From Takakia lepidozioides (Eukaryota > Plantae > Bryophyta), in NCBI GenBank assembly GCA_030704615.1, contig CM060733.1, positions 310,001 to 374,000 on the forward strand: 64,000 nt of DNA, given 5' to 3'. A model generated the notes under the pieces. That model searched no databases, was not told where the DNA came from, and saw only the letters and a program-made list of their open reading frames with translations. The position numbers were made by a program, and so were the translations under genes. Shown piece after piece: positions 1 through 59,100 of this stretch (position 1 is the first letter of the stretch; each line of letters opens with the position of its first letter).

Positions 1-956
1 GAGCGTTGCGTAAGGTGAGGGGAGGAGAGGGGATCTGAGTGTAGAGAATTTCAAGCAACTCCTGTTGTCGGTTTTCTTACTCTCCGTCTGTTTGATCTTT
101 CGTATTTTTGGTGGTTCGCTCCATCTTCCTCGTCCGTCCCTCTTCTATGCAACTCTGGGTGTTTCCGCTTTGTTGCATGTCGAAATCGTGTGTAGGATGT
201 CTGTAGTGGAAACCCGTGTACTCCTGCGAGGCAATGTGAAGCGTGGTTGATGAATAAGAAAAGTGTACGTATCCTGGCAAGCGAGGCAAGTGCTGGTGCT
301 CTTTAGGGTTTATGTGCGATCGCTATCTGTTAGTATACGACTCGTTTCTTGTGCCAGTGTTAGATTGTTGATCGATGTGGGTTTGTGATGGGATGGAAGT
401 TGGAACAATCCAGAATGTTGTACTAATTAGACGGTTGGTTTCTTTAGCCTCGTAGTCCTAGAGTCCGCAATCGGGCGAGGGGATGGAGGGAGAGCTGCCC
501 GGGGGACTCTAAAGCCGAGGGGCACTCGCTCCAGTAGTTGGACCCATATACGAAAATGAAGTAGGTTCTGACCAGATTTGCTCGAGAATGCCCCCCTCTC
601 TAGCATCATTTGGGGAGGGAGGAAGATGGAGACACATGGAACTGGATGCACTTAATGCACTGGTAGAAAGGCCAGAGCATCACAGGGTAGTAACCATCGG
701 GTGGGAATTTTTGTGTGAAAGGTACATGGTTTTTGTGTCAGTATGGAAGGTTGCGTAGACCTTGTCAGGAGAACAATGAGTGATGCAGAAAGATGTAGAC
801 GTACTCGCTGGGAGGTAATAGCGTAATTGAGATGTTCATAGAAACCCTACTACAATACCTGATGGGAAAGAGACAAGACAACGGTTTGGGAGCCAACGTC
901 TGACTTCAAGTGATTACCTCTCGCTCACTCAAACACAATCCCTTGCGGTCTTGCAG

Positions 957-37385: not shown

Positions 37386-38661
37386 TGGGGTGGAGTTAAA
37401 AGAAATTCTGGTGAACATGCAATTCACAGTAACCCTTAAGCACGTGCATTGAGCAAATTTTATCCCCTAAAAAGCCTAACCTCTGGCCAATGAACTGAGG
37501 CAAAAAACCTACCTTGTTACACTCAATAAAATGGACCTTACTATATCAGGTACATATTCACTCCGATTTCATATAAATTTGGTGTAGTAGAGGTATATTG
37601 CGTTGTAATGGAATCCAAAATAGTGCATTGGAGATGTAATTTCGAGCAGAAAATTCACCTTTGAATACGGATAGCGTGACATGATAAAAATACAGGTGGG
37701 CATAAAACTTGTCGGTTGTTATACCAGCTCGTATATCAGACACATGATACTCCTAAGAAGGTTATAATGAAGACAAATCCACCTATACACTTCAACTTCA
37801 AAGAAAGAGAGAAATAGGTAATGTATAGCCGGACCTTAAACATCATGCCAATGGGCCCTTGCTGTTGCTTGGTGCGTGCCCTACCCACCTTGCTACAACG
37901 ACCCTCCCTCTCCTCTTGCACTCCCTCTGCCTCTTCTGCGCTCCGTAATGCACCCTCCATCTCTTCCTAAGCTCCCTCGTTGACTATAGCTTGCCAAAAA
38001 TGACTGCTTAATGTTTTTTGGGGGTACATATCCAGCTTGTCTACCATGTCAACCCACTCAACAAATTGTGGAGAAATTCACCATAGGACAAGAGAGATTT
38101 TAGTGTTTTAGTGGGTTTTGTATTTTGGATTTTGCAAAATATGAAATTTGAGCTTTGACCTTGAAGCTGTTTGAGTAACAGGTTTCAATTTTCCTATTCT
38201 TGCCTCTCACATAGAAATCTGGTATGCTATTGTTAAAAATTTCAAGCCAAACAACCTCTTTTTAAATTAGGGTAACCTAGTAATTCAAAGTGAGCCCATG
38301 CCAAAAGTGAACTCTTTGATAATGATGAGTTGTTTCACCCAATCCGGTGTGGTGAGGGTGTGGACAGCACTAAAAGAGTGAGGTTGGTCTTCTCTCTGAA
38401 TTCTCCATCCAAAGGTGGAATTTACAAGTGTGCGCTCAGACCCACACATCGGCCAATTATGACTTGCAGCGCATAGGGTCAACTATGTGTGGTCCCTGTT
38501 TGTTTAAAAAAAAATCTAAATAGTCAGATTTCTACTTGGAAATGCCCGATCAGCTACTCATACAAAGGAATTATAGGGGGTGAAAATAAAAACAATTCAT
38601 TAGAATGCGTCCATATTCGCATGGCAGGAGCCTGATTTTGCCTACATGGACCTGTTAAAAC

Positions 38662-39446
38662 CAGTGTTGTACCGGCATATAGGGTATTCCTTGGTATGTG
38701 CACAGGTATATGTATCAAGGACCCTACCAGCCTGATATCAACCAAGAGAAATACCCCGGCTATGTACAAGTTGCCCCCAATAAGTCCCAAATTAATACCC
38801 TGGCTTGTACCATACCAGTATGGTATTGATTAATGTCATATCCTTGTAGATACCAGTACTCCCCCCTCGGTGTGGCGAAGTCCCTAGAGTATTTGCTGTA
38901 TAGCATAGGTGGGGGGGGGGCTCTTCAATGTCCAGTGTAGTGGCTGTAAATTTTACTTCAGAGGCTGATATTGTGGAGGATCATGAAGATGAATTGCAAG
39001 AGGCTGGATATTTTGATGACTTGGGAGATTAGACTTCTTAGCGTGCTACTAATAGAATTGATTCCATCTAAAATTGAATCAAATTTTGCAACCACTCAAT
39101 TGCTCTAGAGGCACTTACAATTGTATTTATGGTGACTTCAAGAAAATACTTCTTTGATTTAAAATATATATTCAGGAATTTTGTTACGACAAATTTGCTC
39201 TTATTATTTTAAGGTGTGCAATGATCTTATCTAATACCAGACCCGGATATATGTATCACCCAAACAACTACTCTATATTTATACCAGATCAAACAAAACT
39301 ACTCACTTCTATTTATTTATACCAGTCCAGTATCTAAAAAATTTAAATTAATGTAATACCAGGACCTGCCATATCTCAAATTTAGTCCATAATTCAATAC
39401 CAGTACTAGTCTGGTATGCCCAAATTTTAATTTTGGTACAACACTG
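38662..39446. mobile_element. Non-autonomous hAT element
   Basis: 12-bp TIR CAGTGTTGTACC / GGTACAACACTG, perfect 8-bp TSD GTTAAAAC on both sides, subterminal ATACC(AG) repeats. Confidence 0.92.
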
Positions 39447-39582
39447 GTTAAAACATTCTACTTGTTCTATAGCCACTTCTCTAACCTTGTCATCTGGTTA
39501 TTCTTGTCAGATGGGTGCTGGGTAGAATTTACATGTGGTCTTTGTGCTGATTTTGGAAAAAATAAACAATAAGGAGAGAAAC

Positions 39583-39622
<40 letters not shown>

Positions 39623-40482
39623 ACACACTGTTCGTCTTGCATGCTCCAACTTCATCACCCCGGCCTACGTTTTCTAAAGCATCTACGTGTCGGAAAATTC
39701 ATAAGAGTTTACTGCTTTCAATGGGAGAGGGTGTGAAGATCTGCAAAAGGTCTGAGTAGCATATCAGAACATTAAGAAAGAGCACCAGAGGAGCACCCGT
39801 AAGGGTAAGAGAGTTCAGTAGGAAGCGGCCGATGGGGAACGGAGCTCTCAGGGTGACCATGGGATTTTCTCCCCTCTGGCAATGTACTCCCCCAACCCCA
39901 AAGGTTTCCCCTCAAGCTCTGGTAGCTTTTGGGCTCTCTCCTCTGTCAAGTTATTTTACCACTAGTGTGAAACTAGCTAGGAAATAGCTAGCTTTTACAT
40001 ATTGACATTTGGGATTGGCCCAAGTATCAATCCAGGGGTCAAGGCAGATTTAGGCCCTGGAGTGGTTATCTTCACGGAAAGCGCGGGAGGCTTATCTTTC
40101 TCGAGTTGAGCCTCACCGCGCTTAGCTATGGCGCCGTAGTGTGGATTCCCCATGGCGTGGGGTGCACTTGGCTTGACTTGTATTTGAGTGATGAGGTTAT
40201 ATATGCATGAGTTTATGCTTCAGCTTTGTGAGCTCGCATGAGCTTGTGCTTGTATTCTTCTTCTTTATCACTCGAGAAATATCAGCTCGTATCTGTGAGT
40301 GCCAGATACGAGTTAGTTGTAGCACTTGTGGTTTTTGCTTGAGAATGAGAGAAACCAGGTTGTTATGCAAGGAGCATCGTGGAGCCCTTGGTTGTTAGAA
40401 GCGGAGGTGATGTGGGTTACGAGGTGGTAGACCTTGGCATTTGATCTTCAGCTTCAGAGATGAAAGCACCATGCTGCAGGTT

Positions 40483-40830
40483 GCATGTGTGGAGCATGTA
40501 TTCAGCTCATTGAAGCTTCCATCTTCAAGCTTGGAGGGCAAACAAGGAAGAGGGAAGGGCTGACTTCCCTTATGTGAGGGCAATGCATGTGTGGAGCATG
40601 CTTTCAGCCTGTTGAAGGCTTGTACTTTCAGGTTTGGGAATGCAAGAAAGGAAGCAAAGGGGCTGATTCTCTTGTGGTGAGAGTGGGGCATGTGTGGAGC
40701 ATGCCTTCAGTCCATTGGGCTTTTGTTTTCAAGCTTTAGAGAACTAGAAGAGAAGGTAAGGGTCTGATCTGCTCTTATGTGACAGTCCGACACTTGTAGA
40801 GCGTGTTCTGAGTTGGGGTTTCAACCTCAA
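40483..40830. repeat. ~102-bp degenerate tandem repeat x3-4
   Basis: GCATGTGTGGAGCATG recurs at 40483, 40585 and 40688, followed by similar TTCAG..TTCAAG..AAGGG.CTGA blocks. Confidence 0.85.
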
Positions 40831-41217
40831 GCCTAGATAGAGCATGGCTCTTGAAGTGGCAGGTATAAGGGGCTGGAATAGGCTCTAAGACAGATGCTAT
40901 GGCCAAGGAAAGCGCTTGAATGAGTGCTCACAAGGACTGGAAACCAGCAAGGCTTGGTTGTTTGCCATTGAGTTTAGTGGCGTGTTTGGGGAGTCTAAGT
41001 AAGAAAGAAGGTTTGGTTTGTGACAACCATTTTCTTTATGGCTTAGGGCTACTATTGGTGGTGTGTGGGAGCCGAAAGAGCAAGAATACCTTGCTGATTT
41101 CTTCACAGCCGCCATAGCTCGGTGCAAAGAAACCTAGAGTTCAAGAGACACAAACCTTAGCTTGGCGTGGCTAAACCCCTTGGAGAAATGGCTAAACTGT
41201 CATGTGTGGCCATGGAT

Positions 41218-41630
41218 GGGGCTGTGAGGGGATAAGAGGGGCTGTGACAGGCTGTGACAGGCTGTGGCCTTTGGGGCTGTGACCTGTGTAAGGCTGTGAC
41301 AGGCTGTGATGGGCTGTGAGGGGCTGTGCCATGTGGCCTGTGGGGCTGTGACGGGCTGTAAGGGGCTGTGACAGGTTGTGCCCTGTGGCCTGTGGGGCTG
41401 TGACGGGCTGTGAGGGGCTGTGACAGGCTGTGGCCTTTGGGGTTGTGACCCCTGTGACCTGTGTAGGGCTGTGACAGACTGTGCCATGTGGCCTGTGGGG
41501 ATGTGATGGGCTGTGAGGGGCTGTGACAGGATGTGGCCTTTGGGGCTATGACCCCTGTGACATTTGTAGGGCTATGACAGGCTGTGCTTGTGGCCTTTGG
41601 GGTTGTGATGGGCTGTGACGGCTGTGACCA
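41218..41630. repeat. Minisatellite of ~10-bp GGCTGTGACR units upstream of gag
   Basis: Dozens of GGCTGTGA/GGCTGTGG variants with higher-order periodicity. Confidence 0.92.
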
Positions 41631-42649
41631 GTGATCTGTGTGGGCCTGTGCTGGTCTGTGGTGGCCCGTGTTGACTCGTGGACAGCCTGTGCTAACTCGT
41701 GGAGGCACTGGTGGACTGCCTAAGGACTGGCATGTGGTCTTGAAGGCCGAATTTTGAAGCTCGTGGAGGGCGGTTTGAGGAGTATCTTCATGATATTCCG
41801 ATGGTCATGCAAGTGAGGGAAGAGATGAGAAAAAGAGTGTTGGGATGAGGGCATGCTGGGGTTAGGCATTGCTTTAGCTTATCTTAGTTTCCACCCTCTC
41901 ATTAGGCCAAGACTTTTCCGTAGGTGGAGGCAAGAGTCAGTCCGGGTTTGGGCTGGGGTGTCCTTGCAAGAGCAACACCGTGGAGTTGTTTTTTGTGTGG
42001 GGGAGTTGTCGTTCTGATTTCTTGTGTTTGGATCCCCTCCATACTTGCATGCTTGACTGTGCGCCATGCTAGTTTTGTGTGGGCGCTTGTTTTTATAGGT
42101 GATTGGTCCGGATTTGATCACTGGCCAGTCCTAGAGCATGTTGTCGATGGTGAGGCTGGGGTGATGACCAGCCAGACCATCATTGTTTCTCTTGTGGTGA
42201 GGTTGGAGGTGATGACCAACCAACCATAGGAGTGCTTGCGGTGGATGCAGGTACAGGTGTAGGCTATGTTAGGAACTTAGTATTCCAAACCATAAGCCGC
42301 AACAGGTTCTCTACCCGGTTACCTTGTGGAGAGGGGGTTAGGGACATGTTCATGACCGGTTGAGTGTCAACACGGAGGTGCCACTAGTTGCTGGGGACAG
42401 TGCCGGTTCGAGCACTAGCGATACTAGTAGGTACACGAGACAAGGTGTGCGGTTTAGGCCACCTTCACCTCCTGTGTCTTCTACAGAAGGTTCTGATTTG
42501 GATTGTGAATCGGGAGGACTCATATCGGCGGTGCAAGTTGTTTCCTTGCCATTGTTGTGGGACACAATGGAGGAGATGTATGGAGCTACTAAGGGGCCAC
42601 GAAGGTACTCTGGGGCGGTGGGCACCATCGAGTTGGATGGTGGAGGAAC

Positions 42650-43326
42650 GAGTGGTCATGGTGGGATTTGCTAAGGAGACACCACGGGGTAGTGGTGCTC
42701 CTAGCCAACCACTACCTCAACGTGCTCAAGGCAACAATGGGGCTCAGGTGAAGCTCAGGGAATGGCAGAGAGGACCTCAGATGCAGGGGTCTCTCCCTTC
42801 ATTTGCTGGCCAACAACGGGCGGATGTGGTGTGCTGGACATGTGGAGGACCCCATGTCAAGAAGGATTGCCCAGAGGGAGGTAAAGGGCCGGCACATGCA
42901 TAGCCTGCACAGTTGCAGTGTGGGCATTGTGGCAAGCACGGGCATGGAGAGGCCCAGTGTTATGGTTTGCACCCTGAGTTGCGCCCAGGCCAGTTCGAAG
43001 GGAATAATGGTGGTCAGGGGCGAGGTGGAGCAGCCCAGAGAGGACGAGGTGGCCAGGCACGAGGTGCAGGCCAAGGGCAAACTCAACATGGCCAAGGACG
43101 CGGAGGTCAGGGTGTTGACCAAGGCATGGCCAACCGGCTTCAGCAGCTAGAGCAAAGACTTGCTGCCATAGCTACAGCTCAGGTGGTACCAGCTCCAAGG
43201 CCGGATGGTCCACCTCTTGCTCCTGAGGGAGGAGATATGGGAGGTATGGGATTCATGTGCGGAGCAGCACTACCACTAGTGCAGGTGGAGTCTGCTGGAG
43301 CCGTGACTGATGGCACGAGTTCCTGA
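42650..43326 (+). pseudogene. gag: Gag nucleocapsid region with two zinc knuckles and an RGG-rich tract
   Basis: CWTCGGPHVKKDC and CGHCGKHGHGEAQC separated by TAG at 42901, then GQGRGG repeats. Confidence 0.85.
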
Positions 43327-44257
43327 GCCACGAGGTGCAGAGGTGGAGTTGGATCCACAGCGTGGGGAGGCAAGTCATCAGGCTAGGCTTCCTCAGTCAT
43401 TCACATTGGTGGAGACAGTGTCGACGCCATCCATGGCACCTAGTTCTCGCCCGATTATTACCGAGGCGGAGGTTACTATGTCATTGGGGAGAGCTACACG
43501 GGTAGCACCGTCACCTAGTTTTGCCAAGGCTACGGCAGCTAGTGTACTGCTGGGAGCGGGCACATCTGTGTGTCAGGCTCCATTGTTCTCAGCTACTATA
43601 ATTGCGACGTTGGGGGTAAGACCAGCTGAGGTGTTTAGGCTGGCAGCTACACTCTGTGAGAGTGGGGAGGTTACTTCATCTTCTGCGGAGATAGTGAGAG
43701 GTGTAGTGCCGGAGGAATCCTCAGATTTGAGGGTCAAGACTACCACGGCGGCGCCATGGCAAGCTGCAGCTGCCAGGTTGATGGAGCTGCCAGCTAGGCC
43801 AGCCATTGAGCGCGCCATGGTGACACCTGGAGTTGTCATGTTAGACAACCAGGATGTCATTTTCTGTTTGAGTGGACCGGCAGGCAAGAGGTACCGGCCA
43901 CTGCGGGTCTTGTTGGACTCGGGAGCTCAGCCATTGATGCTGGGCAAAGCTGCTATTGCAGGCTTGGGCCTCACGGAGGCAGATATGGAGCCTTGTCCTT
44001 TCCAGATACAGAGGTCTCTGGGAGGATCGGAGCAGGCTCGGGGCATGACACGGCGTGAGTTGGCTATCAGACTACGGCCGGATCACCCTACAGATGGCTC
44101 AGTGATGCGAGCCAAGGCCATTGTGACAGACGCGGTCTCGTACAATGTCCTGGTTGGTGGGGCAGTATTGTACCCCATGGGCTTCACCCTGGATTTTTGG
44201 GAGGAGTTAGCTTCCTATAGGCGTGGATGGCAGTCAGGGGAAGGCCGGCGTGTGTAG
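43310..44257 (+). pseudogene. Retroviral-type aspartic protease region of pol
   Basis: RVLLDSGAQPLMLG (DSG catalytic motif) and distal YNVLVG. Confidence 0.85.
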
Positions 44258-44515
44258 CTCCCTGTGACATTCATAGGAGGAGTTGCAGTTGCCCAGCGGG
44301 GCAAGATACCGACACTAGCAGCATTCACAGCTGCAGTGACTTGGCCTGCAGAGTTGCTAGAGGGCAACGCTCATTCAGAGGATGTGTCACCTCCGGGAGA
44401 GCAGGATGATATATATGGTATGGCGGAGTTGCCTGCCATGGTTGCTCAGACTCCATTGTGGGGCACGAGCAAGGATTTGCAGCGGGTTGCTGATCGACGG
44501 GTACAATAAGCCTGG

Positions 44516-45877
44516 GTGGAGGCTTTTGTACCATCAGGAGAGGAGGAGAGTGCGGGGATTGCACCAGGACCACCTCCGTTGTCACCATTGGATACCACAC
44601 CTATTGTGTGGCAGTATCCGGATGAAGGCATTTGTCTTCTGGACTTGTTTGGCGGGATCAGCACCGGATTGGCTGTTGTGTTACAGACAAGTGTACGAGT
44701 TCGGTGTTACCTGTATGTGGAGAGGGATGAGACTGCACGACGCGTTTCACTTCGCCATGTTGCTCAGTTGGTGCAGCAATATCCTGAGTTGTTGTCGGTG
44801 TCTGCAGTTCGTGGATATCAGCAGGCCTTGCCAGAAGACATTTCGTTGCTGGGGGCGCAGGATTTGGAGCGGGTTGGCTCCATTGATCTGGTAGTGGCAG
44901 GTTGGCCCTGCCAAAGGCATTCATCAGCCGGGCATGACAATGGATTGCGAGACTCGAGGTCGAGTCTGTTTTGGGAGATAGTGCGGGTTTTGCGCCACTT
45001 GCAGCTTCATCAAGCTATGTCTCCAGCATACATTTTGGAGAATGTGCCACTGATGGGCGATTCTCGGGCTAGGGTGATGGCCAGTGTGCATCAAGTCCGG
45101 TCGTGGCTTGGGTCAGCAATGTTGCTAGATGCAGCTACAGTGGGGTCACGGGCTCATCGTCCACGGCTATGGTGGACTAACTTGATGCCACCCGCACTGC
45201 TCAAGCGTGCATTTGATAGGGTGCAGTGGCCAGCACACCTCACAGTGGATAGCATTTTGGACACAGGGAGGCAGTCTCAGCTTGTGAGACACGATGACCG
45301 TTCGCCTTTGGCAGTGGTCAACAGGGTGGGTCAACCACGAGCAACATTACCTACACTGCTCAGCTTCCCAGGATCGCATGCTTTCCGGGATAGTGGACCT
45401 GGCCTCCTGTGGGATGCTCAATTGCAGCAGTTAGTGGAGCCTAATGCTGATGAGCGTGAGCGGGCGATGGGTTTTACCACTGGTACCACGGCGGTGTCGT
45501 CTCTTTCTGAGGCATCACGTCGTCAGGTGTTGGGGCAAGCAATGGATCTCAATTGCTTGACCTGGATTATCAGCTTGGCTATGGCTGAGCAACGCAGAGT
45601 GCGCAGTACACTTCCCTCGATGGTCTCTCTGCGTACCGAGACGGTACAGGCAGTGTGTGGGGGCGAGCATGTGAGGACCACGGGGTGTAGGCATCCATGG
45701 CATACATGGGAGGTGCTCGAGGTTCAGAGGGAGTTGGCAGCCAAGGTGGCGGTGATGGATGAGGTTAGGGATTTTTCTCGGGTGGAGAAAGTCCTTGAGG
45801 ATGAGATGATGGGGCAGGATGAGGCCTTGTCACTGACTGAGCAGGTAGGGAGTACTACTCAAGAGGTTGCAACATAG
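44516..45877 (+). CDS. Retrotransposon-encoded C5-cytosine DNA methyltransferase, DNMT3-like (domain ~44630-45580)
   Basis: Motif I LLDLFGGISTG, II YVERD, III EDI, IV IDLVVAGWPCQ (Cys codon 44909-44911), V GLRDSRSSLFWE, VI YILENV, VII LLDAA, VIII AHRPRLWWTNL, IX ERERAMGF, X RRQVLGQAM. Same frame as the protease (43310) and RT (46037). Confidence 0.92.
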   Translation: MEAFVPSGEEESAGIAPGPPPLSPLDTTPIVWQYPDEGICLLDLFGGISTGLAVVLQTSVRVRCYLYVERDETARRVSLRHVAQLVQQYPELLSVSAVRGYQQALPEDISLLGAQDLERVGSIDLVVAGWPCQRHSSAGHDNGLRDSRSSLFWEIVRVLRHLQLHQAMSPAYILENVPLMGDSRARVMASVHQVRSWLGSAMLLDAATVGSRAHRPRLWWTNLMPPALLKRAFDRVQWPAHLTVDSILDTGRQSQLVRHDDRSPLAVVNRVGQPRATLPTLLSFPGSHAFRDSGPGLLWDAQLQQLVEPNADERERAMGFTTGTTAVSSLSEASRRQVLGQAMDLNCLTWIISLAMAEQRRVRSTLPSMVSLRTETVQAVCGGEHVRTTGCRHPWHTWEVLEVQRELAAKVAVMDEVRDFSRVEKVLEDEMMGQDEALSLTEQVGSTTQEVAT

Positions 45878-46036
45878 CAACCACTAGACGCGTCCTCTAC
45901 CTCTAAGCCCACTGGACTTAAGGTTGCAGTTACGGAGAACAATTGGGAGCCTGACATTGGACCCATTGTCACCGGAGGAGAGAGATGACGTATACGGCGG
46001 TTCCTGAGGGCTTACAGGAATTGCTTTGCCTTCAGT

Positions 46037-47386
46037 TTGAAGGACTTGGGAGCACTGAAGGGTCAAGAGATTCGTATTGAGTTGGCCACTGACACGCCAA
46101 TCTTTCGGAGACCCTATAGATATAGTGACATGGAGAGGTCTTTGATTCAGATGAGGACTCGAGATCTCTGGGAGGCAGGTTTGGTGGAGCTCTCTGGTGG
46201 AGAGTATGCTTCAGCCACAGTGATGCCAACCAAGAAGGATGTCTATGGCAATTGGACGGAGAGACGTATGTGCGGTGATTACCGGCCTGTAAATCGTCAG
46301 ACCAAGTCCGATAAGTATGTCATGCCCACACCGGAGGAGATCTTTGATGCCATTGGGCATGCTAAGGTCTTTAGCACTTTGGATTTACGATCCGGATATC
46401 ACCAGTTGCCGATCAAGGAGGCGGACAAGCAGAAGACGACACTCTGGGGGATCAATGAGCACGGCAAGGATTGCCTATATTAGTGGCGGTTCTTACCATT
46501 TGGGCTTAAGAACGCTCCTGCAGAGTTTCAGAGAGTCATGGATAGGATTCTAGCAGGGGTGGACTTTGCTCAGTGCTACATAGATGACATCATCATCTTT
46601 AGTGCTACGGTGGAGGAGCATGAGAGACACCTTTAGGTGGTATTGGAGCGCTTGAGAGCGCACGGATTGAAGTTGCATCCGGGGAAGTGCAAGTTTTTCC
46701 ACAACCAGATTGAGTTTTTGGGTCACATGATATATCCTGGAGGATTGGGGGTACAGCAGACTAAGGTAGAGGCCATTGCACAAATTCCACATCCCACGGA
46801 TGTGAGCCGAGTTCGAGCTTTCATGGGGTTGACAAACTATTATAGACGGTTTGTCAAGGGATTTAGTGCCATTGCAAAGGCTCTAACCAAGCTGGCCAAG
46901 GTGGACCAGGAGTGGCAATGGGAAGATGAACAAGAACGAGCTTTTCAAGAGCTCAAGGCGAGGTTGACCTCGGCGCCTATCCTGAGACGACCTATCAGGG
47001 GGCGTCCCTTTCAGCTGCATACGGATTGGAGCATGTTGGGGCTTGGAGCGGTGCTCACACAAGTGGATGATGAGGGAAGAGAGTTCGTAGTGGCTTATGC
47101 TAGCCGCTCGAACAACGCTGCAGAGGCTAAGTATAGCTCATATGAGGGAGAGTGCTTAGTTGCAGTGTGGGCGGTGGCACACTTCAGGTGCTATCTATAC
47201 GGCAATCTCTTCACCCTTGTCACGGATCACCAGCCACTCAAGTGGTTGATGGAGTCAGACAAGCTTACGGGGAAGCTTGCACGATGGGCATTCATACTCC
47301 AGGAGTATGACTTTCAGGTTGTGTATCGACCGGGTTTGGTCAATCGGGATGCGGATGGATTGAGTCGCAATCCATGCACGAGCTAG
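46037..47386 (+). pseudogene. Reverse transcriptase and RNase H
   Basis: RMCGDYRPVN, FSTLDLRSGYHQ, LPFGLKNAPAEFQR, YIDD, KC.F; RNase H LHTDWS..LGAVL, YASR, E, LVTDHQPL, RWA, NRDADGLSR. TAG stops at 46481, 46634 and 47384. Confidence 0.95.
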
Positions 47387-47759
47387 CAGGATGATACTGG
47401 AGCTCGGTGGCATGGTGAGACGGACGAGGAGACGGTGTCGGGATGGCATGCATCTGCCTTTTTGTGTATCTTGGCATCGGGAGGTCAGGTTGGACCTACA
47501 ACAGGGATGACTGTAGACGGAGTGTCTGAGGACCCTGAGGCTAGTGATAAGCCAAGTGGTACCAGAGATATACATGAGGATTCGACTATGTTGGACTACC
47601 TCCGTACTGGAGACATGGCAGCCACTGTGACTGCCAAGGAGAGGGATCGGATCCTGCAACGAGCCAAGAGGTTCAAGTGGGAGGGGATACATGTGCTCCG
47701 AGTATGGGAGAATGGTCGGATGAGGATTGTGCCTCACCCTACACAGCGTGCACGGTTAG

Positions 47760-48860
47760 TGCGGCATGCCCATGAGGAGTTGGGGCATTTTGGAGTGTGA
47801 CGCACTCACAGTTTACTGTAGGGGCGGTATTGGTGGCATGGTATGCATACAGAGGTGCAACAGTTCGTGGCTAGGTGCATGGTGTGTGACAGGGTGTGTG
47901 CTTCATTCAACGCCCCTACACCACAGTTGCATCCTTTACCAATCATAGGATTGGGCTACAGGTGGAGTCTTGACTTCGCAGGACCGTTGTCACTGACTAT
48001 GCGCCACCACAGATATGTGTTGGTGATGGTGGAGCACTTCTCCAAGTGTTGGTTCCATTGCCTGACAAGGCTAGTCAGGGGGCTGCGTATGCATTCTTGG
48101 ATCGTGTGCTTAGCCGATTTGGTGCTCCAGCTGAGGTACTCACGGACCAAGGGAGAGAGTTCTTGGGGGAGTTTCAAGCTTTGTGTGATAAAGCATTGAT
48201 AGACCACCGCACCACTTCTCGGGATCATCCTGAGGCCGATGGCTTGGCAGAGAGAGTTGTTTAGACGGTGAAGAGGGGTTTGCGCAAGTATGGCTTGCAG
48301 AAGGGACACCTAGGAGATTGGGATCTTCAGGTTCCTTGGTTAGTCATGGGCTACAGGTTCAGCAAACAAGCATCACTTGCCTCTTTCTCACCATATTTCA
48401 TTCTCTTTGGCCGAGTGCCGGATTTGCCTGCAGCCATTCGTAGGGACACTGCTCAAGTCCTTAACCTTGACGATCCGGACATGTGGGTACGTACATGTGA
48501 TCAGCGTGCAGAGTTGTTCAAGAAAGTCATGCCCATGGCTTTTGAGAACCTTGTCATTGCACAGCACCGTGATACGTTGAGGTATGCCACTATACGTGCT
48601 GGAGGATATCGTCATGGGGTTCGGAGGTTTAGCCCTGGTGACTATGTTTATTTGCAGCAGACTGCTCCTACGACTCTAGATATTACTGCAGGGCGTGTTA
48701 TTCTGAGGGTTCGAGAAGTGTTGCCCTCAGGGGTCCTGATCTTGGAGGGTCGGGATGGCATGACTTGGAAGGACCATGTGCGTAATTGTGCGCCATGTCA
48801 CCTTCCCAATGTCGATGGCAGAGTTGACCCAAATTTGGCAGTGGTACCTGCAGGTTTGAG
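47760..48860 (+). pseudogene. Integrase (HHCC zinc finger and DDE core)
   Basis: HEELGHFG...CMVC; WSLDFAGP, VEHFSK, VLTDQGREF, HPEADGLAER. Stops at 47798, 47819 and 48262, frameshift near 48048. Confidence 0.93.
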
Positions 48861-48861
48861 G

Positions 48862-48996
48862 AGCATGCTCTGTGGGTCTGCCAAAGGGGCAGCCACCATG
48901 ATGGTGTGTGATCGATGCTCAAGGGGTTGGCATATGGGATGCTTGACACCACCTCTTGAGAAGGTTCCTGACGGAGATTGGTTGTGTCCACATTGC
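48862..48996 (+). other. PHD finger at the integrase C-terminus
   Basis: (S)MLCGSAKGAATMMVCDRCSRGWHMGCLTPPLEKVPDGDWLCPHC fits C4HC3 spacing with the first Cys read as Ser. Confidence 0.92.
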
Positions 48997-51900
48997 TTGG
49001 AATAGTGGTAGTGGACATGACTGGAGGCAGCTAACAAGACATGGGAGGCTAAGCTCATAGGAGTCAATACACGAGATCCCAAGCTCAAGTTCACAGATTG
49101 CAAGACGGCGACTAACGATGGGGCAACTCTTGCACCCGGCCTCTTGATCTATCGAGTTTGAGTGTAGTAGGGATAGTGGTGGAGGACTTAGTGAGGCTAT
49201 GGTCACTATCACATCTTGTGGCTACCTGGACTTAGAGGGACCTAAGCACCAGCTAGGGGGACGATTGTGTGGACTAGTGACTGCCATAGTGGGCAGCATA
49301 GTGGCAGCCTAGTGATTGACTATTTGTAGCCTAGTGGTTGGACTAGTGGTGGACTAGTGGTATACTAGTGTGTGGTGTGCACATATGTTGTGTGGTTTTG
49401 GACAACGATGTACTACCTTCCAGCTGAAAGAAAAAGAATGAACGGCCAGAGCTGCATCACCTATCAGGGATCCGTCAGCAGTGTCTCCATCGGCCTTGCC
49501 CCTGCTTCCATGCAAGTAGCCACATTTGTTAAGACAACTTGCTAGATGTCCAGGCCTCTTTGCGTGCTAGTAATTTGTTTTGAACGACTTGGGACATATT
49601 ATCATAAAATCAGTGTAGACTCAGACGGCGTCGTAATGGAACATAACAAGCTCCGTTGCAAATGTAATTTTGGGCAGAAAAATCATAGGCACATACAGAT
49701 CTTGCAACATAATAAAAATATACGTCGACATATAACTCGCCGCTCTGATAAAATCCCAATCCCCTGTATAACGTAGTTTAAGAGCTTCCACCCTCCTATT
49801 CGTAGCCAACCACTCTCATAAAGATCTGTATGAAAGTAAATGAACTAGCTAATATCTATGAACTATAGATAGTATGAAATGAACTAGTAAACTTCGTTTT
49901 TGACCATACCAAGCCTCACCGGACTTCCCTGGATCTCCCTCCTCATGCTGGTCCTCATTGCCGCCAGCCCCTAAGGGAGACGAACCTTAAATGGACAGTC
50001 TACCTAGTTCGCATGGATAGAGTGAGCAGGACAATATAAAAATAATTTTCATGGATTAGCAAATCGAAAAGAAGTATGACCCAATTTTCTAGTTGAATTT
50101 ATAGTGATAATATGAAATAGATATGATTTTTCAAAGTCTGGGACTCGTAGACACCTATTTGTGGCACATAGGCCCCCCCCCCAAAGCAAACAAAAATAAT
50201 CCTATTATGGTTACTTTGTCATCCAATTTTAATTTTAATTGGTCCTAAAGTAGACATGAACATAGCCTTATGTGAATATGGTTAGACCTTAAATGGACAT
50301 CATTGATGGCCAATGTGGCCCAACAGAGTTAATGTATCATGCTACTCTGACCCTGGCGGCCCGCATGAGGGAGCGTTTTTCTAAAATATCCCAGCTAACA
50401 TCCCCTAAGGCCTAGGCTGAAGACCATCAATTGACCAATCACCCTAATAAATATGTTTAGCCCTCAGAAGTGGTACTTGATATTGCATTAACCACACGTT
50501 GTCTTGAGCGAAACTCCTAGCCCGCTGTCCCAAAAATCCCAATGATTAACATATGTGTAACCCTCTTTGATCCTAAATCGGTCACATATTCCCCTCAATG
50601 TGGTCCCATTTCCTGAATGTCACTATAATGTAAAGGCATTGTCACTTTAAGGTCAAAACATAGGTGTCCATCAACATTTTTTTTTTTCATTTAAGAACTT
50701 GAGCCACGTTGGCTCTTGGCTGGCCTATGAGGAAGATCAATTTGGTGACTCTGTGGCATGTGATCTCGAACCGGTGGCAACTGTCAAGAATGTTTGAGGA
50801 GTTTTATGCGAACTCAACTCATGTAGTGTTCGGTTTGTGGGAGCGACAAGGGAGGTAATTTTTTCTAAGCAACAACAAAGCCTAGCACAACTTTGTCACA
50901 TGGATACAATCCATTGACAAATATGACTAATCTTGTGCAAGATCAGCAACTCTGCTCAAAGCCTCATGTGCCAGTGCAAGAGATGGTGCAAGTCTGCTTA
51001 AATGGAGGTGCATGACACGGATACTAGGCGGGGAAGCGAAACCTAAATGAGAGTTCCCTCCATAACTCGACCCCTTGGCGAAAGCGGGAAGAGTTTGAAC
51101 CCAAGGATTTGCTCCTCGCGTTGGCAGGGTGGTAGGGTTTCTAGAAATCGATAGGCAAGATCATCTAGATCTAACGAACCCAAATGGCATGTGGCTCTTT
51201 CCATGTGCGACAGTTGTACAAGCGGCGTCCTCATTGCAACGACATGATGGCCTTAGGGAGGGCAGTAATGCAAAACAGTGCCATATTTTAACCCATAATT
51301 CCTTTGTAAATTTTGTGAGGCCAATTTCTGGATCGAAAAGTGGCGAAATTTCGGGCATAAAAAAAACGCTGGTGTCCATTTAAGGTCACCGACCATTTTA
51401 GATACGTCTCCCTTACCGCTATCTCCCTCCTCCCACCGCTAGTCCTCATTGCCGCCAGCCCCCCACAAGCCTCCACCACCATCACCCCAGTGCGATGTCG
51501 TACCTCTGGTGGTACTGTACAGCCACAAGCGGCTATCGAACACCAGTCTACCACACTGCTCCTCTGGTACTCCCTCTACTCTAGAGCCTTTGCCAAACTT
51601 GGCTTGGGCATGCACTAATAGCCATGTGCTCCTTGGAGCAATAGCCCGGTTCATGCCACTGCATGCTTGGAGCGCCTCTCTCGGGCATGCAGTGCCAAGG
51701 TGCCCCGCCATGCAATGGGCATACATGCCCACATGGGGCCCCACATGCAATAGCCACGACGCGCTGCTCACTCCTCCTCGACTTCCAGACACCGGCTTCC
51801 ATGTCGACTGCCCATTGAGGGACTTTTTTTCCATTCAACTTGGGGTACATATATAGCGGCCGTTCCTAAGTGGACTGCCCCTATTGGCCTGCATCACTGT

Positions 51901-53168
51901 GCTGTTTTCCACTAAAAAGATGACCATTATGGTGTCTCGACTACTCAGGACGACTGCCTTCCGTTGGAAGGTGCAGACTTTGAATCCTAGATCACCGTGG
52001 TTATGCAGAGGCAAACTCCCAACCACTCGCATACCTGCTCCAGTGCTCATGTCTCAAATGTCTATCTGCAGTTGGTGTGCCCTCATAATATAAGGAAGGG
52101 AGCCATGAGTCAGCCTGGCCCACTCTTGAAGCCATCGCACTGCTGGCTTGCACGGCAGCTGTGCTCTTGTCCTCTCTCTCTTAACTTACTTGTTGCACTA
52201 CACCACAGTGTGCGAAGACCCACATGACAGATTGACAGAATCAAAATCTCAGGGGGTGTTAAGAATTACTGTTAGTTATCATCATTCCCATGGAAGGTGC
52301 TCTTTTGTACCTCCTCAACAAACTAAGTACTTGAAGAAAGTTATCTGACTGCTGGAGCGTCCACCCTCCCTCATGTCTGTATTAAAGATTTGGATTCATG
52401 TTTCTCTCTCACAGCGCCCTGTGTTCCGACTTTGTAGCTCTCTAGGGGCGGGGTGGGCCCTCTGCAGATTGCCCTTCGACATTCCACTCTACTCTACCGG
52501 AATTTTTACCATCTCTTTGCGTGCAAGTCTGGACATAAAGTGACCATTCGTCACTGTCAGTGGACTTCAGGAGATCTATGCTCTGTTCTTCTCTCTGAGT
52601 GTGGGTTTCGCTTTGCATGAGCGCTGTGTATAACTTCAAATACTACAGTCTACTCTACGGCAAGACTTTCCTCTTCTACGATGTTTTGTGGAATTCCATA
52701 TTGTCCCAGTGGAACCTATGATTTCTGTGTCTGCGAGGACAATGATTCTGTCTCCAGATCAGTTTCTCTGGATAAAACACACTTTGGAATGCGAGGATGA
52801 GTTCCTCGATTCCATCAGTTTGTTGTTGTCTGATCTCCAGCTATCCCTGGGATGAGGTTCTTTCGTCACCCAAAGGCGGCAGGAGATCTAGACGCCCAGT
52901 TTATCAAACTCCACCTCACCATCGCGGAAAGAACAAAGTGAGGAGTTCGTCATCAGTTGTAAGTATCCCAATCGCGCTCTGTAGAGTGCCTTCCTCACTA
53001 CCAAGTTACTCGAGGACTGCTTCCATGAGGTTCGAAATGTCCCTTTATCTTACAAAGAACTGTTTGTAGAAAGGAGGTCGTAGCTACAGGAAATGGGGTG
53101 GAAAACACGGCTCTCATTTAAGTAGTGATTGCCACATTTTTCAGGGTGGCAACTTCCTTGATCGCGTC

Positions 53169-56100
53169 ATGGCTGCGGCACATGCTAGCCTTTGCCAATC
53201 TTATATTCCCCTGGCTGATACATCTGCGCCAAATGTAATACGAGGGAAGGACGCCACTGCATCAAGCACACTAGTGTCCATTTCCATTTATAGCAATTTG
53301 ATGGGGCGCACTTATTTAGCAAGACCACAGAAACTTAGATTTGATCAACAGCTATCACAAGGATTGCAGCGAGCATCTGGAAATGAAAGGCTTCGTGTAT
53401 CTGGCAACCACTTGCGGAGAAAAAATAGTGCAAAAGAGATCAGTTTTAGTCCGGGAGGGCCGAGTGTGTCAATCCAATTTACAACATCCATGCATTCAAA
53501 TCACCAAAGAAAAAGCCGTCAACTGTCTCTCGCTGTAGCGCCCCTAACCTTTCTCGAGAAGTTGCCAGGGCCATCGCGTTCTCCCGAAAAAGTGGCCAGC
53601 GGTTTAACTTCTTTGAAGAATGTAGCGCTCCTTCAAGACAGCCTGGGCACTTTGAGCCGATCCATGGCTTCAGTGGTGCAGAAGGCAACAGAGTTCTCAA
53701 ATGTGCCCACCCCTTCTCCAAGCCTGCAGTTACTTCGGCAATCCTCTTCCAGTCTCTGGCAAGCTGCTGCAACTGTTACCAAGTCAGCGAGTGTTGGACA
53801 ATTAAGTCACTCAGCATCCATGGTGCTGCACAATGCTCAGGCCCTGACTTCTGAGATAGGCTCGAGGGTCGCCCACCTGGCATCAGGCAGCTTAGAATTC
53901 CACACGCCCTCGCTGTCTACTTCAGCAGAGCATTTGGCTAGCCAGATTGGGACAACTGTAGGAGGGTACTATGAAGGGCTGGGCATAGAAGCCGCCCCAA
54001 TGACCACAACAGCTGTGCTCGCCACCATAGCCACCTCATCGGTTGTTGTTTCTTCGCTGCATTTCACCGAAAACAAGAAGGCTGTCGTGGAGGGAAAAGA
54101 TTTACCTTTGAGATACAACCCCGATGCAATTGCTTCATATTTCAAAACAAGACCAATTGATATAATCATACGGTCCGTCAAAATCATGTTCGAGTGTTGC
54201 ACATTGACGGCCAACATTCTGATTGACAAGTACGTTGGGCGGGAACAAGATAATCAGAGACTCCGCGCAACGCAGCTAGTGGAGCTGGTGGCCAGGCTTG
54301 GACCCACAGCTATCAAGGTCGGGCTCTGAACATCTCCATCTCAAGCACTTGCACCATCCTGAATACAATACAAATGTCAAAAATTGAGAAATGGGTCACT
54401 TATATAGTTGTAGGCTTTCTTTGTGCCCGGAAACCTTGTACTGATGCCCAGCTATCCAAGTCTCATGCTGCAGGGAGAGAGGATGAGGGAGGAGTGTTAC
54501 CCAATTAACTGTTTTGTACCAAGTATTTGCTTTCTACACTCCAGCAACCATTCTACTAAGGGAGGCGTTGTATGTACAGAAACTTTTCCTGCCAGTAGCC
54601 ATGGGTGCTGGGACCGTGATAATTTTGCCATGTCTTTCATAAGCTCCTCTTTCTTCAAATTAAGTTATAATATTTCACCTAATCCCTTGACGTGGCCACT
54701 GCATGCTTCTATTTCTCCTCATTCCACCCGTCTGACATTGTAGAGGGAGCTTAGCTCAAGAGGCTCAGGGGCCCTATTCAATGTCACATTAGGCCATATG
54801 GATACCGAGGATCTTGCTAGAAAGGTGATTAATGTTTTTAATTTTCTAAACAAGGTTATCGTGGTGGGATCAAAACCTCAGTAAGATGAATGTTCTTTGT
54901 CTCGGTGGCTGTGTTAACAGATAGGGCAGGCACTGAGTATCAGGCCTGACATATTACCAGTGGTTTACCTGGAGGAGTTACAAAAGCTTCAAGATCGTGT
55001 CCCTCCATTCTCAAACACAGAAGCCAAGCAGTTAATCCTTGAAGGCCTGGGCAAAGATGCGGAAGAAATTTTCTCTGAGATCTCAGTGGAGCCAGTCGCT
55101 GCAGCATCTCTAGGGCAGGTAGTCACACTTCCACTTCTTTGGATGGTTAGTTAAAGAAAGAAAAATAGTAACTGATAACTTCCATGAGAGGGAGAGAGAG
55201 AAATGAGAGAGAAATGCTATTGTCCAGACAGTTCCATAGATGTTACAATGGCAATTGTCATGGATTCTCACACGAAACATTTCAGGTTTACAAAGCACGG
55301 TTGCAAGAGACTGGAGATATTGTTGCAGTCAAGGTTCAGAGGCCAGGGGTCCTGGAGGGGGTTTCCCGTGATCTCTATCTGCTAAGGACAGGAGCACGGT
55401 TGCTTCAAGCTCTACCATTCATGCAAACAGACTTTGTTGGTCTTCTCGACACCTGGGCTCTCCGCTTTTTCGATGAGCTTGACTATGTGCAAGAGGTGGC
55501 TGCTCAAACCCAAACTCTGTTTGCATCAAATAATTTAGTCCCACCATTCCCCTAGTCCTGCTCCCACTTACCTCCCCCTCTCCTTCTGTTCCCTCAGGCA
55601 CAATTGCTATGGCCACATATCTATAGACGAGGGAATTATGATGCCCACAGGAGGCCAAGATGGCAGAGAGAGAGTATTCATTGGTCTTTCCCTGCGGAAG
55701 TGTATAATCCCCCAAGATACCAGCACTGGTTGCAGGATTTGAACATATATACGGAAGTCACAGGCAATTGCCATATCATCCGTGCATAGCTGATGACATA
55801 TTGGTCATAGGGGATACAGCCTGGATTTGTGGGTTGCCATTTTCATCATGCTAAAAAGCATGACTTTTATTCCAGCACTGCTCTCTAGCTTGCAACAGAC
55901 CTGGGCAGTATATGGCTGTAATTACACCTCAGTGATACTTGTGAGAAAGGGTGGCGAAACTTTGTAACATCCCTGGGAAGCTTGAGCAAAGAAATGAAGT
56001 GATACTTCTATAATGTCTGTTGGGAAGCTATGGGACAAGGGAAAGCATGAAACAAGAAAGAGAGTGGGGCCCTCCACATGCAGCCCGGAAACAACTATTG

Positions 56101-59100
56101 ATCAAGGGATTGTCCAAGAGTGAATGCCTCATGCAGTCATTAACTGAGAGCTCAGAGTGCTCATTGGAGAAAAATACAGAATAAATAAGGAAATCAGCAC
56201 CAGAAACCAGGGCCAAATTTCCTGCATGAAGATGGAGTATCTTGTGAAGGAATGCTGCCTTCAGAACAAGATGCCTCTCCAGAAATGAGCACTTCCTGAA
56301 GAGCGTAGTATCTCCCTCTAATCTCCTACTACATAGGGCAGGAGGAAGAGAAGTGATGTTCTATCGGACAGTGTGCGTCATACAATCTGGGCATTATGTC
56401 CTACTCTCACAAAGTACGGTAAGCCCTCTGCCTAGCTCAATCTGAAGATTGTGCGAACAGACTCTGAGAGCACTTTATAGGGCAGCACATTGATGCTCTT
56501 TCAGAAGCCAGCTGCGCAGAATCTGAAGGCTTGACTTGATGATCTTGGAGCAAAGCTGTGTTATCACTGACAACAAAAATATATGTGGCCACTGTGCAGG
56601 GCAAGAATGCAATCCGGTTCTCAAAGGATATGAGATTTTTGCCAAATGTCACTGTTCCTGATGTTTATCCCTCACACACCTCCCGCAAGGTACGCTACAT
56701 CTGTACGCTGCCTAAGCTGGTTTTGTCTTTGACTTTGGTGTTTTGAGGGAGAACGAGCACATGGCTGTGGAAATACAAAGGCCATGTAAACAATGACATT
56801 TCTTAGCTCTCGTATGTGGGCTTACACCACGTTAACCAGATTACTAAATATTGACTATATGTTGATCCGTAGGTGCTAACAACTGCATGGGTGAATGGAG
56901 AGAAGTTGTCAGAGAGCAATGCGGCCGATTTGTTGCCACTGATCACAACGGCCCTTAATTGCTACCTAATACAACTGCTAGAAAGTGGGTTTCTTCACGC
57001 TGATCCTCATCCTGGCAACCTTCTGCGCACAACCGATGGCCGTCTGTGTGTCCTGGACTTTGGGCTTATGACCGAGGTGCGCACTTTTTGGCTCCCCCTC
57101 CTCTCTGTTTCTCTATTGCGTGTGTAAAATTGTGTTTGATTTTTCAGGTGTCATTTAAAACCGGTAAAGGACTGTAATTTCACAGGTTACTGAAGACCAG
57201 CGCTACACACTCATGGAATACGTTTCTCACCTGGTGAACTCAGACTATGCCCGTGTTGCGGAGGATCTGGTGAAGCTAGGCTTTGTGCCCGCAGAGTTTG
57301 TGGACCCAGAGAAGACTGCTGCAGTGGTGCCACAAATCAGTCGAGTGCTGGGCCAGATTGTTCAAGGAGGCGGGGTCCAGAAAGTCAACATCCAGCAGGT
57401 ACATTGCTTGTTTGGATAGATAATGGAATTTTGTGGAGGCTAGTAAGGCAGGTGAAGAAGTTGGTGATGTACTCATTGCATTTCAAACTCGCATATTGAT
57501 TGTCAGCTGAAGGAAAATCCCCTACACAGATCTTCCCAATCATCTTACCAAACTTTCTTGTAGCATTGTGTAGGTCACAGACGATCTTATCAAGATTTCG
57601 AAAGACTACGTGTTTGTGATCCCACCCTACTTTGCCCTCATACTGCGTGCCTTCTCGGTGTTGGAAGGAATTGGGCTGGACGCTGATCCTGACTACACCA
57701 TTGTCCATGAGTGCTATCCATACATCTCCAAACGACTGCTCACTGATGACAGGTATCTTTGCCAATGTCTCTTATGAAAGAGCTTGCCTGCAGGAGCAGC
57801 TTTGGGGCGGGCGGGGGGATGAGAGAGCAAAAAGGAAATTGAGAGTCTAACGGTGGGGAATGTGTTTCCAGTCCTCGAACCCGCGTGGCTCTACAGTATT
57901 TCTTGTATGGGGGAAAGACCCAGCTGGATATCCAGAGGGTGGAGGACATAACTGCCGGGTTTCAGAACTTCCGAGAGCTCATGGTGCCCACCAATGGTGA
58001 GGCCGGGCAACCTCCCAAACTAAAGCCTATAGATCCATGGACCAAAGAAGCCTTGCTGTTGCTTTTTGCTCCTGAAGGAAGTTTTGTCCAAGAGCTTCTT
58101 CTGACTGAGGTGTGTCCTCTCTCCCTCAAGGGGTGACGTTGCCAGGTTATCTAGTACATACATAGTTCTCATGCACAAGATCTGGACTTCGTGCTGAAGT
58201 TATAAATTTCCTTTCCTTCTTTCTTCCTTTACCATATGTATTTCCATTTTATCTCAACAGTACAACCAGCAGTGCAAGCACAGACATGTGTGACATTAGT
58301 TGTAAGCTAGAGGGCTAAGGAGCAGTGATAGCATTAACCTCATGCTGTGCAGTATACAAGGTTACAGAAACTATAATCATCAATGGACTTTCTCTTGCCC
58401 TGAGTACCTTTATACCAAGGCTCTGTGCTGGCTTGATAAATGGGAGAACTTTCCCTTTGAAGAAAATCCCTGCTTTTACCATTGTAGCTGCCTGAAACCA
58501 AACAAGGACACAAACGAGCTACTTTCATGTTTTCAAAACGCAAGAATAGTGTCCCAGAACTTTTCTGATGGGTCTTTGGGATCTGGCAGCTTGTACGTGC
58601 AGTGGATGCCCTTTCTCGGGAGGCTTTAGCAGAGCTCTGGCACTACTTCGCAACCACGATACGCATCCCTCTCCCAGCATCACTGGTTGCCCCCGGGTCC
58701 TGGCCGCTTCCGCTACCTGGCCTTGTGATGGGGCTCAACCCTGTGGCTAAACTCTCTGAGGAGGACCAAAAGTCGCTCAAAACAGTAAGAAGGCTATGGA
58801 TACTGATTGAGCCCCAGCTCAATCGACAAAGCTCTTTTGCAGGTACGTAAAATATGAACAACTCTACAATTATCATAGTGCGATGTGGGTGGAGTATTAC
58901 TTGGCAGACTAAGTAGTCATTCCTGCACTCGTACACCCTTCCAATGAACAAGCTGTTGGAAGATTAGAACAAATCTCCTTGAGATCCTTGACTCAACCTT
59001 GACATATGAACAAGTGGGGACTTACAACTACCTAAGGGGCATCCCACACTGCAAAGCTGAAGCTCAACTGAGAGCAAGTTAATCCAGCTGGGAGAAAGAG

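Follow-up and report, generated by a model that had tools for sequence, protein, structure and literature searches.

A decayed Gypsy element with a methyltransferase domain

The stretch of DNA analysed in this work, 64,000 nucleotides of the moss Takakia lepidozioides (contig CM060733.1, positions 310,001 to 374,000 of the forward strand; "the window" below), contains a retrotransposon in which a DNMT3-like C5 cytosine methyltransferase (DNA methyltransferase, DNMT) is followed by a conserved stop codon and then by the reverse transcriptase (RT). This Gypsy-DNMT3 copy (39944-49412, + strand, as are all of its features) is dead. It is a whole but decayed element, truncated at its 3' end and delimited by contig depth (run X1) and a loose end at 49412; TGTCA at 39944 was similar to the starts of relatives and presumably marks the exact 5' end. 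The 5' copy of terminal repeat unit A (39944-40269), at the end of which other family copies fuse 40269 to 49264 (runs X1, X3 and X6), was followed by a non-coding region with degenerate tandem repeats (40482-41661; units of ~102 nt and 52/103 nt, from the repeat search).

Comparison with the Gag of Marchantia (P0122) revealed a gag remnant (42567-42990): residues 1-24 matched at the start, most of the capsid region was deleted at ~42638 (loose ends at 42637-42639 in contigs), and afterwards only the knuckle region, with zinc-knuckle-like Cys/His motifs, was recovered. The aspartic protease (PR; 43820-44254, LLDSGA at 43910) matched Asp_protease_2 below the cut-off (E=0.029) and was 55-61% identical to the PR of close relatives. 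The DNMT domain (44621-45571), identified by PF00145, motifs and fold, preceded the stop that ends the first open reading frame (ORF1), which lies in a context of the type known from tobacco mosaic virus (TMV) (UAG-CAA-CCA, 45875-45883), and a predicted long-range stem (45888-45991; arms at ~45888-45903 and 45973-45991), a candidate stimulator of readthrough. Downstream were the RT (YIDD at 46577) and RNase H (RH), interrupted by decay stops (45989-47383; RVT_1 in pieces, RT_RNaseH with E=8e-35), and a DDE integrase (IN; H2C2 and core, 47543-48800; from Pfam and relatives) carrying two stops and, near 48047, a frameshift. A PHD finger (48856-49005; PF00628, E=1.2e-10), whose nearest solved structures were those of CHD4, KDM5B, PHF12 and PHF21A, was C-terminal on the integrase; the chromodomain that marks a chromovirus was not found there with Pfam, the PHD finger taking its place. 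A polypurine tract (49255-49264), present at the same place before unit B in the relative L040, led into terminal repeat unit B (49264-49412), which lacked its last bases. The second A and B, known from relatives and contigs, were missing.

Nine in-frame stops interrupted the window element (44255, 44507, 45875, 45986, 46481, 46634, 47384, 47798 and 47819), and all but 45875 look like decay when compared with relatives: positions 44255 and 45986-47819 were sense codons in every relative covering them, and at 44507, L014 had a sense codon, the decayed L009 a stop, and the alignment was gapped for L052 and L081. Scoring relative by relative read 45875 as sense in L052 and L081, whose linker aligns poorly; both carry the stop there.

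Affinity of the methyltransferase domain

The frame containing the domain (44510-45877, + strand, stop to stop, 455 codons) matched PF00145 (E=1.7e-13), the check proposed in an earlier note made from the sequence of the window. That note had described a canonical, non-permuted motif order with PC, ENV and RxR, and motifs I (LDLFGGISTG, 44639), IV (GWPCQ, 44900), VI (LENV, 45035), VIII (AHRPRLWW, 45152), IX (ERERAMGF, 45452) and X (LGQAMDL, 45530) were indeed found in order; the weak motifs II, III, V and VII were covered by the fold match. The circular permutation of DRM (VI-X before I-V) was not seen in this domain, whose order ran from I to X.

Among PDB sequences, DNMT3A was the best match (E=6.5e-10, 42 bits, ~21% identity), followed by DNMT3B, DRM2, M.HhaI and DNMT2 (33, 29, 26 and 16 bits respectively). 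The AlphaFold2 (AF2) model, based on an alignment of 76 rows, reached a pLDDT of 95; Foldseek also gave DNMT3A as the best match (E=1.2e-20, TM 0.83 of the target), and the 31 matches listed were all DNMT3 structures. A search of the ESM Atlas yielded solely PF00145 clusters. By sequence and modelled fold, the window DNMT is nearest to DNMT3 among characterised DNMTs, which agrees with the branch named in the earlier note. The catalytic Cys was kept in 75 of the 76 aligned rows, the Glu of ENV in 72, and the two Arg of RxR in 71 and 72 of 75. Judging from these residues and from the model, intact copies of the family are probably active enzymes.

The domain had also been described as part of pol, intronless and in the frame of PR and RT. 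The shared frame and the lack of introns stood, though the frame is not open (the nine stops listed above); the position inside pol had to be abandoned, because the stop at 45875 is family-wide and places the DNMT at the end of ORF1, separate from the ORF with the RT.

Copies and hosts of the family

The family was compiled from the best 80 of 141 metagenome loci and one contig (L081) of a metagenome-assembled genome (MAG), 81 loci altogether. They showed the order gag, zinc knuckle, PR, DNMT, RT, RH, IN and PHD, with the RT downstream wherever the contig reached it. In L052, Pfam identified PR and DNMT in ORF1, and RT, RH, IN and PHD in ORF2; the D, D and E motifs of the integrase were present in L052, L081 and L069. 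The Gag-PR-RT-RH-IN order with a DDE integrase identifies the element as Ty3/Gypsy.

Protein searches produced 152 matches of similar length (best 120 of 152 taken) and 53 longer ones. Named homologs among the matches listed came from Marchantia, Calypogeia, Riccia, Sphagnum, Klebsormidium (KFL_009030040) and Closterium; vascular plants were not represented among the named ones, which does not show absence, because transposable element (TE) ORFs are often unannotated. In Marchantia polymorpha, Gag-PR-DNMT ORFs were open in at least five cases and carried the annotation of hypothetical genes: five proteins of 1278-1281 aa had intact motifs and ended at the site matching 45875. None of the 56 pattern matches in IMG/VR was a relative, and of 356 matches in GTDB one was: L081, which lies in a cyanobacterial MAG and most likely reached it as plant or algal contamination. 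The assembly of L081, a single-stop element, is a circle of 9,158 bp whose ends overlap by 127 nt.

Contigs aligned on 39000-50500 reached a summed depth of 2e5-1.1e6 over ~39.9-49.4 kb, versus ~5e2-1e3 in the flanks, and the DNMT bins equalled the RT bins (X1); the element is therefore highly repeated, although summed depth is no copy number. One 5009-nt contig carrying another species label (X13) spanned 44327-49015 at ~91% identity. The domain was thus kept in other copies (81 loci, and host contigs with equal DNMT and RT depth), no repeat pair or separate termini surrounded it in the window, and its ratio of nonsynonymous to synonymous substitution (dN/dS) was low (see below). On these three counts the DNMT belongs to the element and is not a stray host gene, as had been proposed.

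The conserved stop codon and its context

L052 and L081 ran from gag to PHD over 2326 and 2172 codons respectively, each interrupted by a single stop after the DNMT tail (TAG CAG TTA and TAG CAA TCA). The stop census comprised 82 rows (the 81 loci and the window), 59 of them spanning the DNMT end and the RT start. A stop was found 22-51 codons before the RT in 56 of these 59, followed by CAR-YY in 51 and by the strict CAR-YYA in 7; as a control, CAR-YY followed only 5 of 903 decay stops inside domains. L027, L044 and L061 were exceptions without a stop in the RT frame, and L055, L057, L059, L060 and L073 had another stop context through frameshift, insertion or decay. A Tyr codon occupied the stop position in the decayed L044, which may be chance; readthrough of the TMV UAG inserts Tyr (PMC2754532).

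The codons after the stop encoded QP, QL or QS across relatives, yet CAR-YYA was kept, and synonymous sites were near saturation between most stop-bearing lineages. Host copies showed no variant at or above 4% at 45875-45883 in four runs, and 45872, 45885 and 45886 varied at 57-99% (X1); position 45986 was too near the end of the aligned stretch to judge. In the window, 45875-45883 contained the type I (TMV) signal, UAG plus CAR-YYA with the downstream ORF in frame, UAG-CAR-YYA being the tested readthrough motif of TMV (PMC2754532, PMC3159437).

Folding predicted a stem in the five lineages examined, beginning 10-14 nt past the stop and closing ~100 nt further on (z of -4.0, -2.7, -2.4, -1.7 and -0.6). 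The post-stop stretch ranked first of 27 ORF windows for folding in L081 and second of 29 in L052. One column-wise consensus stem over all lineages was rejected due to register shifts between groups. Because of these shifts and of the lack of two-sided pair changes, an arm-swap energy test was used: the cognate pairing of 5' and 3' arms was the most stable of 5040 permutations (seven lineages), a rank which is not a strict probability, since the lineages are related.

Several observations weaken the case for a readthrough signal. Around 45 of the 59 rows were near-copies of one subfamily matching Sphagnum proteins (CAA CCC), which reduces the independent lineages to ~6-8, and some near-copy rows were one insertion in two assemblies. 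The largest subfamily (43 rows) had CAA-CCC, one base off the strict motif, which was thus confined to the 7 rows mentioned. The stem was weak in L014 and in the window (z of -0.6 and -1.7), and no compensatory two-sided change was found in any stem pair within four close rows. Taken together, the comparisons between lineages nonetheless indicate that the stop at 45875 is programmed and family-wide, and it is very probably read through to RT-RH-IN-PHD, as judged from its context and by analogy with TMV. With such a stop, it is understandable that gene callers break these elements up or splice them wrongly.

Element ends

Repeat searches found no pair of long terminal repeats (LTRs) in the window; instead of a normal pair, the family has split direct repeats. 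Relatives were laid out as A-coding-B-A-B (L040, L068, L070 and L072) or A-coding-B (L013, L027 and L043), and the A/B junction of the former four matched the 40269-49264 fusion; A-B-A-coding-B was not seen among relatives. Their termini started with TGTCA and ended with GACA or AACA (the TG...CA type). Both ends were present in seven loci (six insertions), with a 4-bp target-site duplication (TSD), read by eye, that was exact in three and had one mismatch in three. The TSD of the window copy is unreadable due to its truncated 3' end. The element works like a Gypsy element but has atypical ends.

The internal B/A junction was located in L002 (14620-14650), L005 (5175-5200), L081 (7051-7075) and L052 (8656-8680). 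It formed an end-to-end palindrome, CGACA-GC-TGTCA, conserved in distant lineages, and the outer ends of the element were the two halves of this junction, flanked by the 4-bp TSD. This arrangement suggests that the DDE integrase integrates circular cDNA by cutting the internal junction. A hairpin (CTCGTATCTG...CAGATACGAG) was observed at 40286-40312, directly after repeat A and at the expected primer-binding site; self-priming from it is possible.

Selection and phylogeny

For the DNMT, four between-lineage pairs had a finite dS, with dN/dS of 0.119, 0.069, 0.112 and 0.173 (RT, 0.03-0.04). Saturation made dS infinite in 12 of 31 domain comparisons, which gave no ratio; all four pairs with the window DNMT were among them. 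Decayed near-copies of one subfamily had a DNMT dN/dS of ~0.5 (RT, 0.23-0.56; all near-copy pairs, 0.23-0.56). The between-lineage values (0.07-0.17) lie far below 1, the ratio that the earlier note had linked to a one-off retrocopy, and they indicate that the DNMT is under purifying selection across the lineages of the family.

Trees were built from 39 rows: all 17 with the order PR-DNMT-RT and 22 of the 56 with RT-RH-DNMT-IN (described below). The 17 rows formed one side of a branch in the DNMT tree (support 99) and in the RT-RH tree (100), as did the 12 stop-bearing rows, the window and Marchantia included (92 and 99 respectively). In the RT tree, Klebsormidium branched first, Closterium next, and then the 12 stop-bearing rows. 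This pattern is compatible with descent from algae to land plants; confidence in it is lowered by the fact that the trees were quick, unrooted and built without host DNMT3s. The proteins scanned, from the best 150 of a 50%-identity search, were retroelement proteins. An independent invention in land plants does not agree with a single clade shared with the Klebsormidium and Closterium elements in both trees, and the sequences identify the family as the land-plant branch of the algal KnitGypsy-Dnmt3 element (de Mendoza 2018).

Related elements and flanking sequences

A large sister group (P0149-P0169 and P0349-P0479; metagenome and Logan proteins) had the DNMT between RNase H and integrase, RT-RH-DNMT-IN-PHD. 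The RT-RH-DNMT-IN order was seen in 56 of 73 proteins having both domains; the group formed one branch side in both trees, and no description of this order was found in the literature examined. EC replaced PC at motif IV in 18 of the 76 aligned rows, and one protein of the sister group (P0356) carried an extra Tudor-like domain.

Outside the element, the window contained an intronless host gene for an EIN3-binding F-box protein (831-3353, + strand). Its nearest named relatives were moss proteins (Ceratodon, 52%, and Physcomitrium, 50%; a lycophyte and a liverwort followed with 48%), from which the host is a land plant and probably a moss. A protein kinase gene (16349-18159, - strand) and an ABC1-like kinase gene (53070-57500, + strand), both of the host, were recognised by eye from ORFs, and a fragment resembling the C-terminal zinc-finger region of LINE ORF2 (13397-14281, - strand) was also noted by eye. 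Degenerate short repeats were common to the element flanks (37600-37709 and 49627-49737; 49932-49971 and 51421-51462) and probably belong to other repeat families.

Proposed function of the methyltransferase

The overall account that we favour, and regard as reasonably likely, is that the leaky stop would hold the DNMT at a Gag-like level and that the enzyme would methylate the element's own cDNA. Most ribosomes would halt after the DNMT and produce Gag-PR-DNMT, and a minority would continue into RT-RH-IN-PHD; lying on the Gag side of the leaky stop, the enzyme would reach a level like that of Gag, not of Pol. It would enter the particle with Gag, be freed by the element protease and methylate the cDNA prior to integration, so that new copies would arrive pre-methylated, without host RNA-directed DNA methylation (RdDM) or DNMT3b. 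Packaging, protease release and methylation before integration, independent of RdDM and DNMT3b, are postulated, and we give them slightly better than an even chance. The integrase PHD would steer integration to silent chromatin with unmethylated H3K4; this is a weak suggestion from sequence similarity. PHD fingers of CHD4, KDM5B, PHF12 and PHF21A read unmethylated H3K4. The full scenario, in which a lineage passed from streptophyte algae to mosses and liverworts gained the leaky stop and loads DNMT at coat levels, its new copies, integrated from circular cDNA cut at the internal palindrome, arriving methylated and seeding de novo methylation of bryophyte genomes outside RdDM and host DNMT3b, is tentative, and we would sooner expect one of its steps to fail.

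Related Dnmt3 domains from Symbiodinium DIRS elements methylate CG de novo in yeast (PMC5890265). Other observations weigh against the favoured account. The window DNMT had an Arg two residues past the catalytic Cys, found in no other of the 76 rows. In yeast, no methylation was obtained with the Gypsy DNMT of Klebsormidium, a result its authors considered inconclusive (PMC5890265). The observed/expected (o/e) ratio of CpG was 0.55 in the element, 0.48 in the host background and 0.27-0.78 in relatives; being not below background, it leaves no footprint of self-methylation, and neither CpG nor CHG o/e separated elements from host DNA.

Alternatively, an abundant free DNMT might tune silencing by acting in trans on the chromatin of the nucleus, be it at the insertion site, at older copies or at rival elements. 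Expression from the Gag side would far exceed the need of one cDNA, the PHD reader on the integrase hints at chromatin, and de Mendoza 2018 raised effects on the host and on chromatin where the element inserts. A domain fused to Gag is, however, expected inside the particle, Pfam recognised nothing but PR and DNMT in ORF1 and gave no sign of a targeting domain on the DNMT side, and algal relatives hold the DNMT in one ORF with the RT (P0354), all of which makes action in trans unlikely.

More doubtful still is a DNMT kept for binding RNA, cDNA or the internal palindromic end-to-end junction which the integrase has to cut, or for methylating RNA. The inactivity of the Klebsormidium homolog in yeast (PMC5890265), the lack of CpG depletion beyond background and the conservation of CGACA-GC-TGTCA in distant lineages would fit such a role; near-invariant Cys, ENV and RxR residues and a fold resembling DNMT3A, not DNMT2, would not.

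That the conserved stop is bypassed by Ogre-like splicing or by re-initiation, and not by readthrough, seems very improbable. Ogre provides a precedent for an intron between GAG-PROT and RT (PMC6317226), gene models of Marchantia and Sphagnum (P0124, P0127 and P0146) join DNMT to RT, though they may be stop-avoiding predictions, and frame-keeping G/GTR..YAG pairs were present in 4 of 7 lineages. Against this, the window, L081 and L069 had no such pair, the others shared no position, the region is ~50% AT, and splicing leaves the kept CAR-YY and the stem unexplained; re-initiation would start 117 codons past the stop, inside the RT, where the first in-frame ATG of L052 and L081 lies.

That a host DNMT3 retrocopy was captured just once, or that the domain is a nested insertion, functionless for the element either way, is refuted by the family-wide position of the domain in bryophyte and algal elements, the contig depth, the congruent trees and the between-lineage dN/dS of 0.07-0.17, despite the decay of the window copy and the dN/dS of ~0.5 among decayed subfamily copies, whose RT values (0.23-0.56) were similarly raised.

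Why a retrotransposon would carry an enzyme that normally silences it has been an open question since 2018, the known cases being in algae that are hard to manipulate. The family moves this question into land plants, including Marchantia polymorpha, contrary to a 2019 review (PMC6338049) according to which "land plants, such as tracheophytes" lack such elements. Its land-plant range, the open Marchantia ORF1s and the putative readthrough signal make the question testable. The signal predicts the amount of enzyme (Gag-like, not Pol-like), which favours a role in the particle. If active, such elements could supply bryophytes with de novo methylation encoded by a TE, and the readthrough cassette would constitute a signal of this kind that occurs naturally in plants outside RNA viruses.

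Comparison with known systems

The element shares with KnitGypsy-Dnmt3 of Klebsormidium nitens (PMC5890265) the Gypsy domains, a Dnmt3-like domain that is not permuted and lies between PR and RT, purifying selection and a DIRS-like repeat layout (A-coding-B-A-B here, compared with the legend of Fig. 4c in that paper); P0160 (KFL_009030040) was 44% identical and fell in one clade with it in both trees. In contrast, the DNMT of the land-plant family ends ORF1 before UAG-CAR-YY, whereas algal-side proteins continue into the RT (P0160 and P0170, as gene models, and P0354, a single ORF of 2188 aa). The family also occurs in land plants, the paper describing an acquisition in the K. nitens lineage, has a very high copy number, and carries a C-terminal PHD which the main text of the paper does not mention. 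With a conserved stop between DNMT and RT, the element was classed as a land-plant variant of KnitGypsy-Dnmt3 and not as the same family. According to the same source, the Klebsormidium TE copies fall in a divergent Dnmt3-related clade, and its genome table includes Physcomitrella and Selaginella, with Marchantia and Sphagnum missing.

As in type I readthrough of TMV, UAG is followed by CAR-YYA (PMC2754532, PMC3159437), and the predicted stem (~10 nt past the stop, loop of ~70-80 nt) recalls those of alphaviruses (spacer of 8-12 nt, loop of 100-150 nt). Here the predicted signal lies in a retrotransposon and after PR-DNMT rather than after Gag; Firth 2011 (PMC3159437) expected stems mainly where CAR-YYA is lacking, whereas both are present in this family. 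Ogre and other plant Gypsy elements with an ORF for GAG-PROT and a second for RT-RH-INT (Neumann 2019, PMC6317226) also have the protease before the break, together with Gag. Ogre, unlike the land-plant DNMT family, has an intron of ~274 bp there, and the ORFs of the latter are in frame, separated by a single stop, with the DNMT in ORF1; no methyltransferase or PHD domain was found in the passages of that survey (PMC6317226) searched for them.

Host DNMT3 enzymes (human DNMT3A/B; moss PpDNMT3b, PMC6453930) provide the closest solved structure and have the canonical motif order, but the element DNMT is intronless, lies inside a retroelement and has no PWWP, ADD or other host domain. SymbioDIRS-Dnmt3 and the EpiLTRs (PMC5890265; 2026 preprint) are likewise retroelements bearing C5 methyltransferases, those of Symbiodinium being CG-active. 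They differ in being described as independent captures, in tyrosine-recombinase elements or with a DNMT4-related domain at the pol end.

The 2026 preprint (bioRxiv 10.64898/2026.05.21.726589) names "streptophytes (Gypsy-DNMT3)"; neither land plants nor mosses nor Marchantia appear in its main text, and its supplementary DNMT tree, like the supplements of bioRxiv 10.1101/2021.11.30.470311, might include bryophyte members. In the literature searched, which did not extend to subscription journals or Repbase, no paper was found that describes bryophyte members or names six Marchantia gene ids, and none on this readthrough site or these element ends. The capture of a DNMT by Gypsy elements in algae is already known, and this work adds the land-plant range, the open Marchantia copies and the Gag-side readthrough signal.

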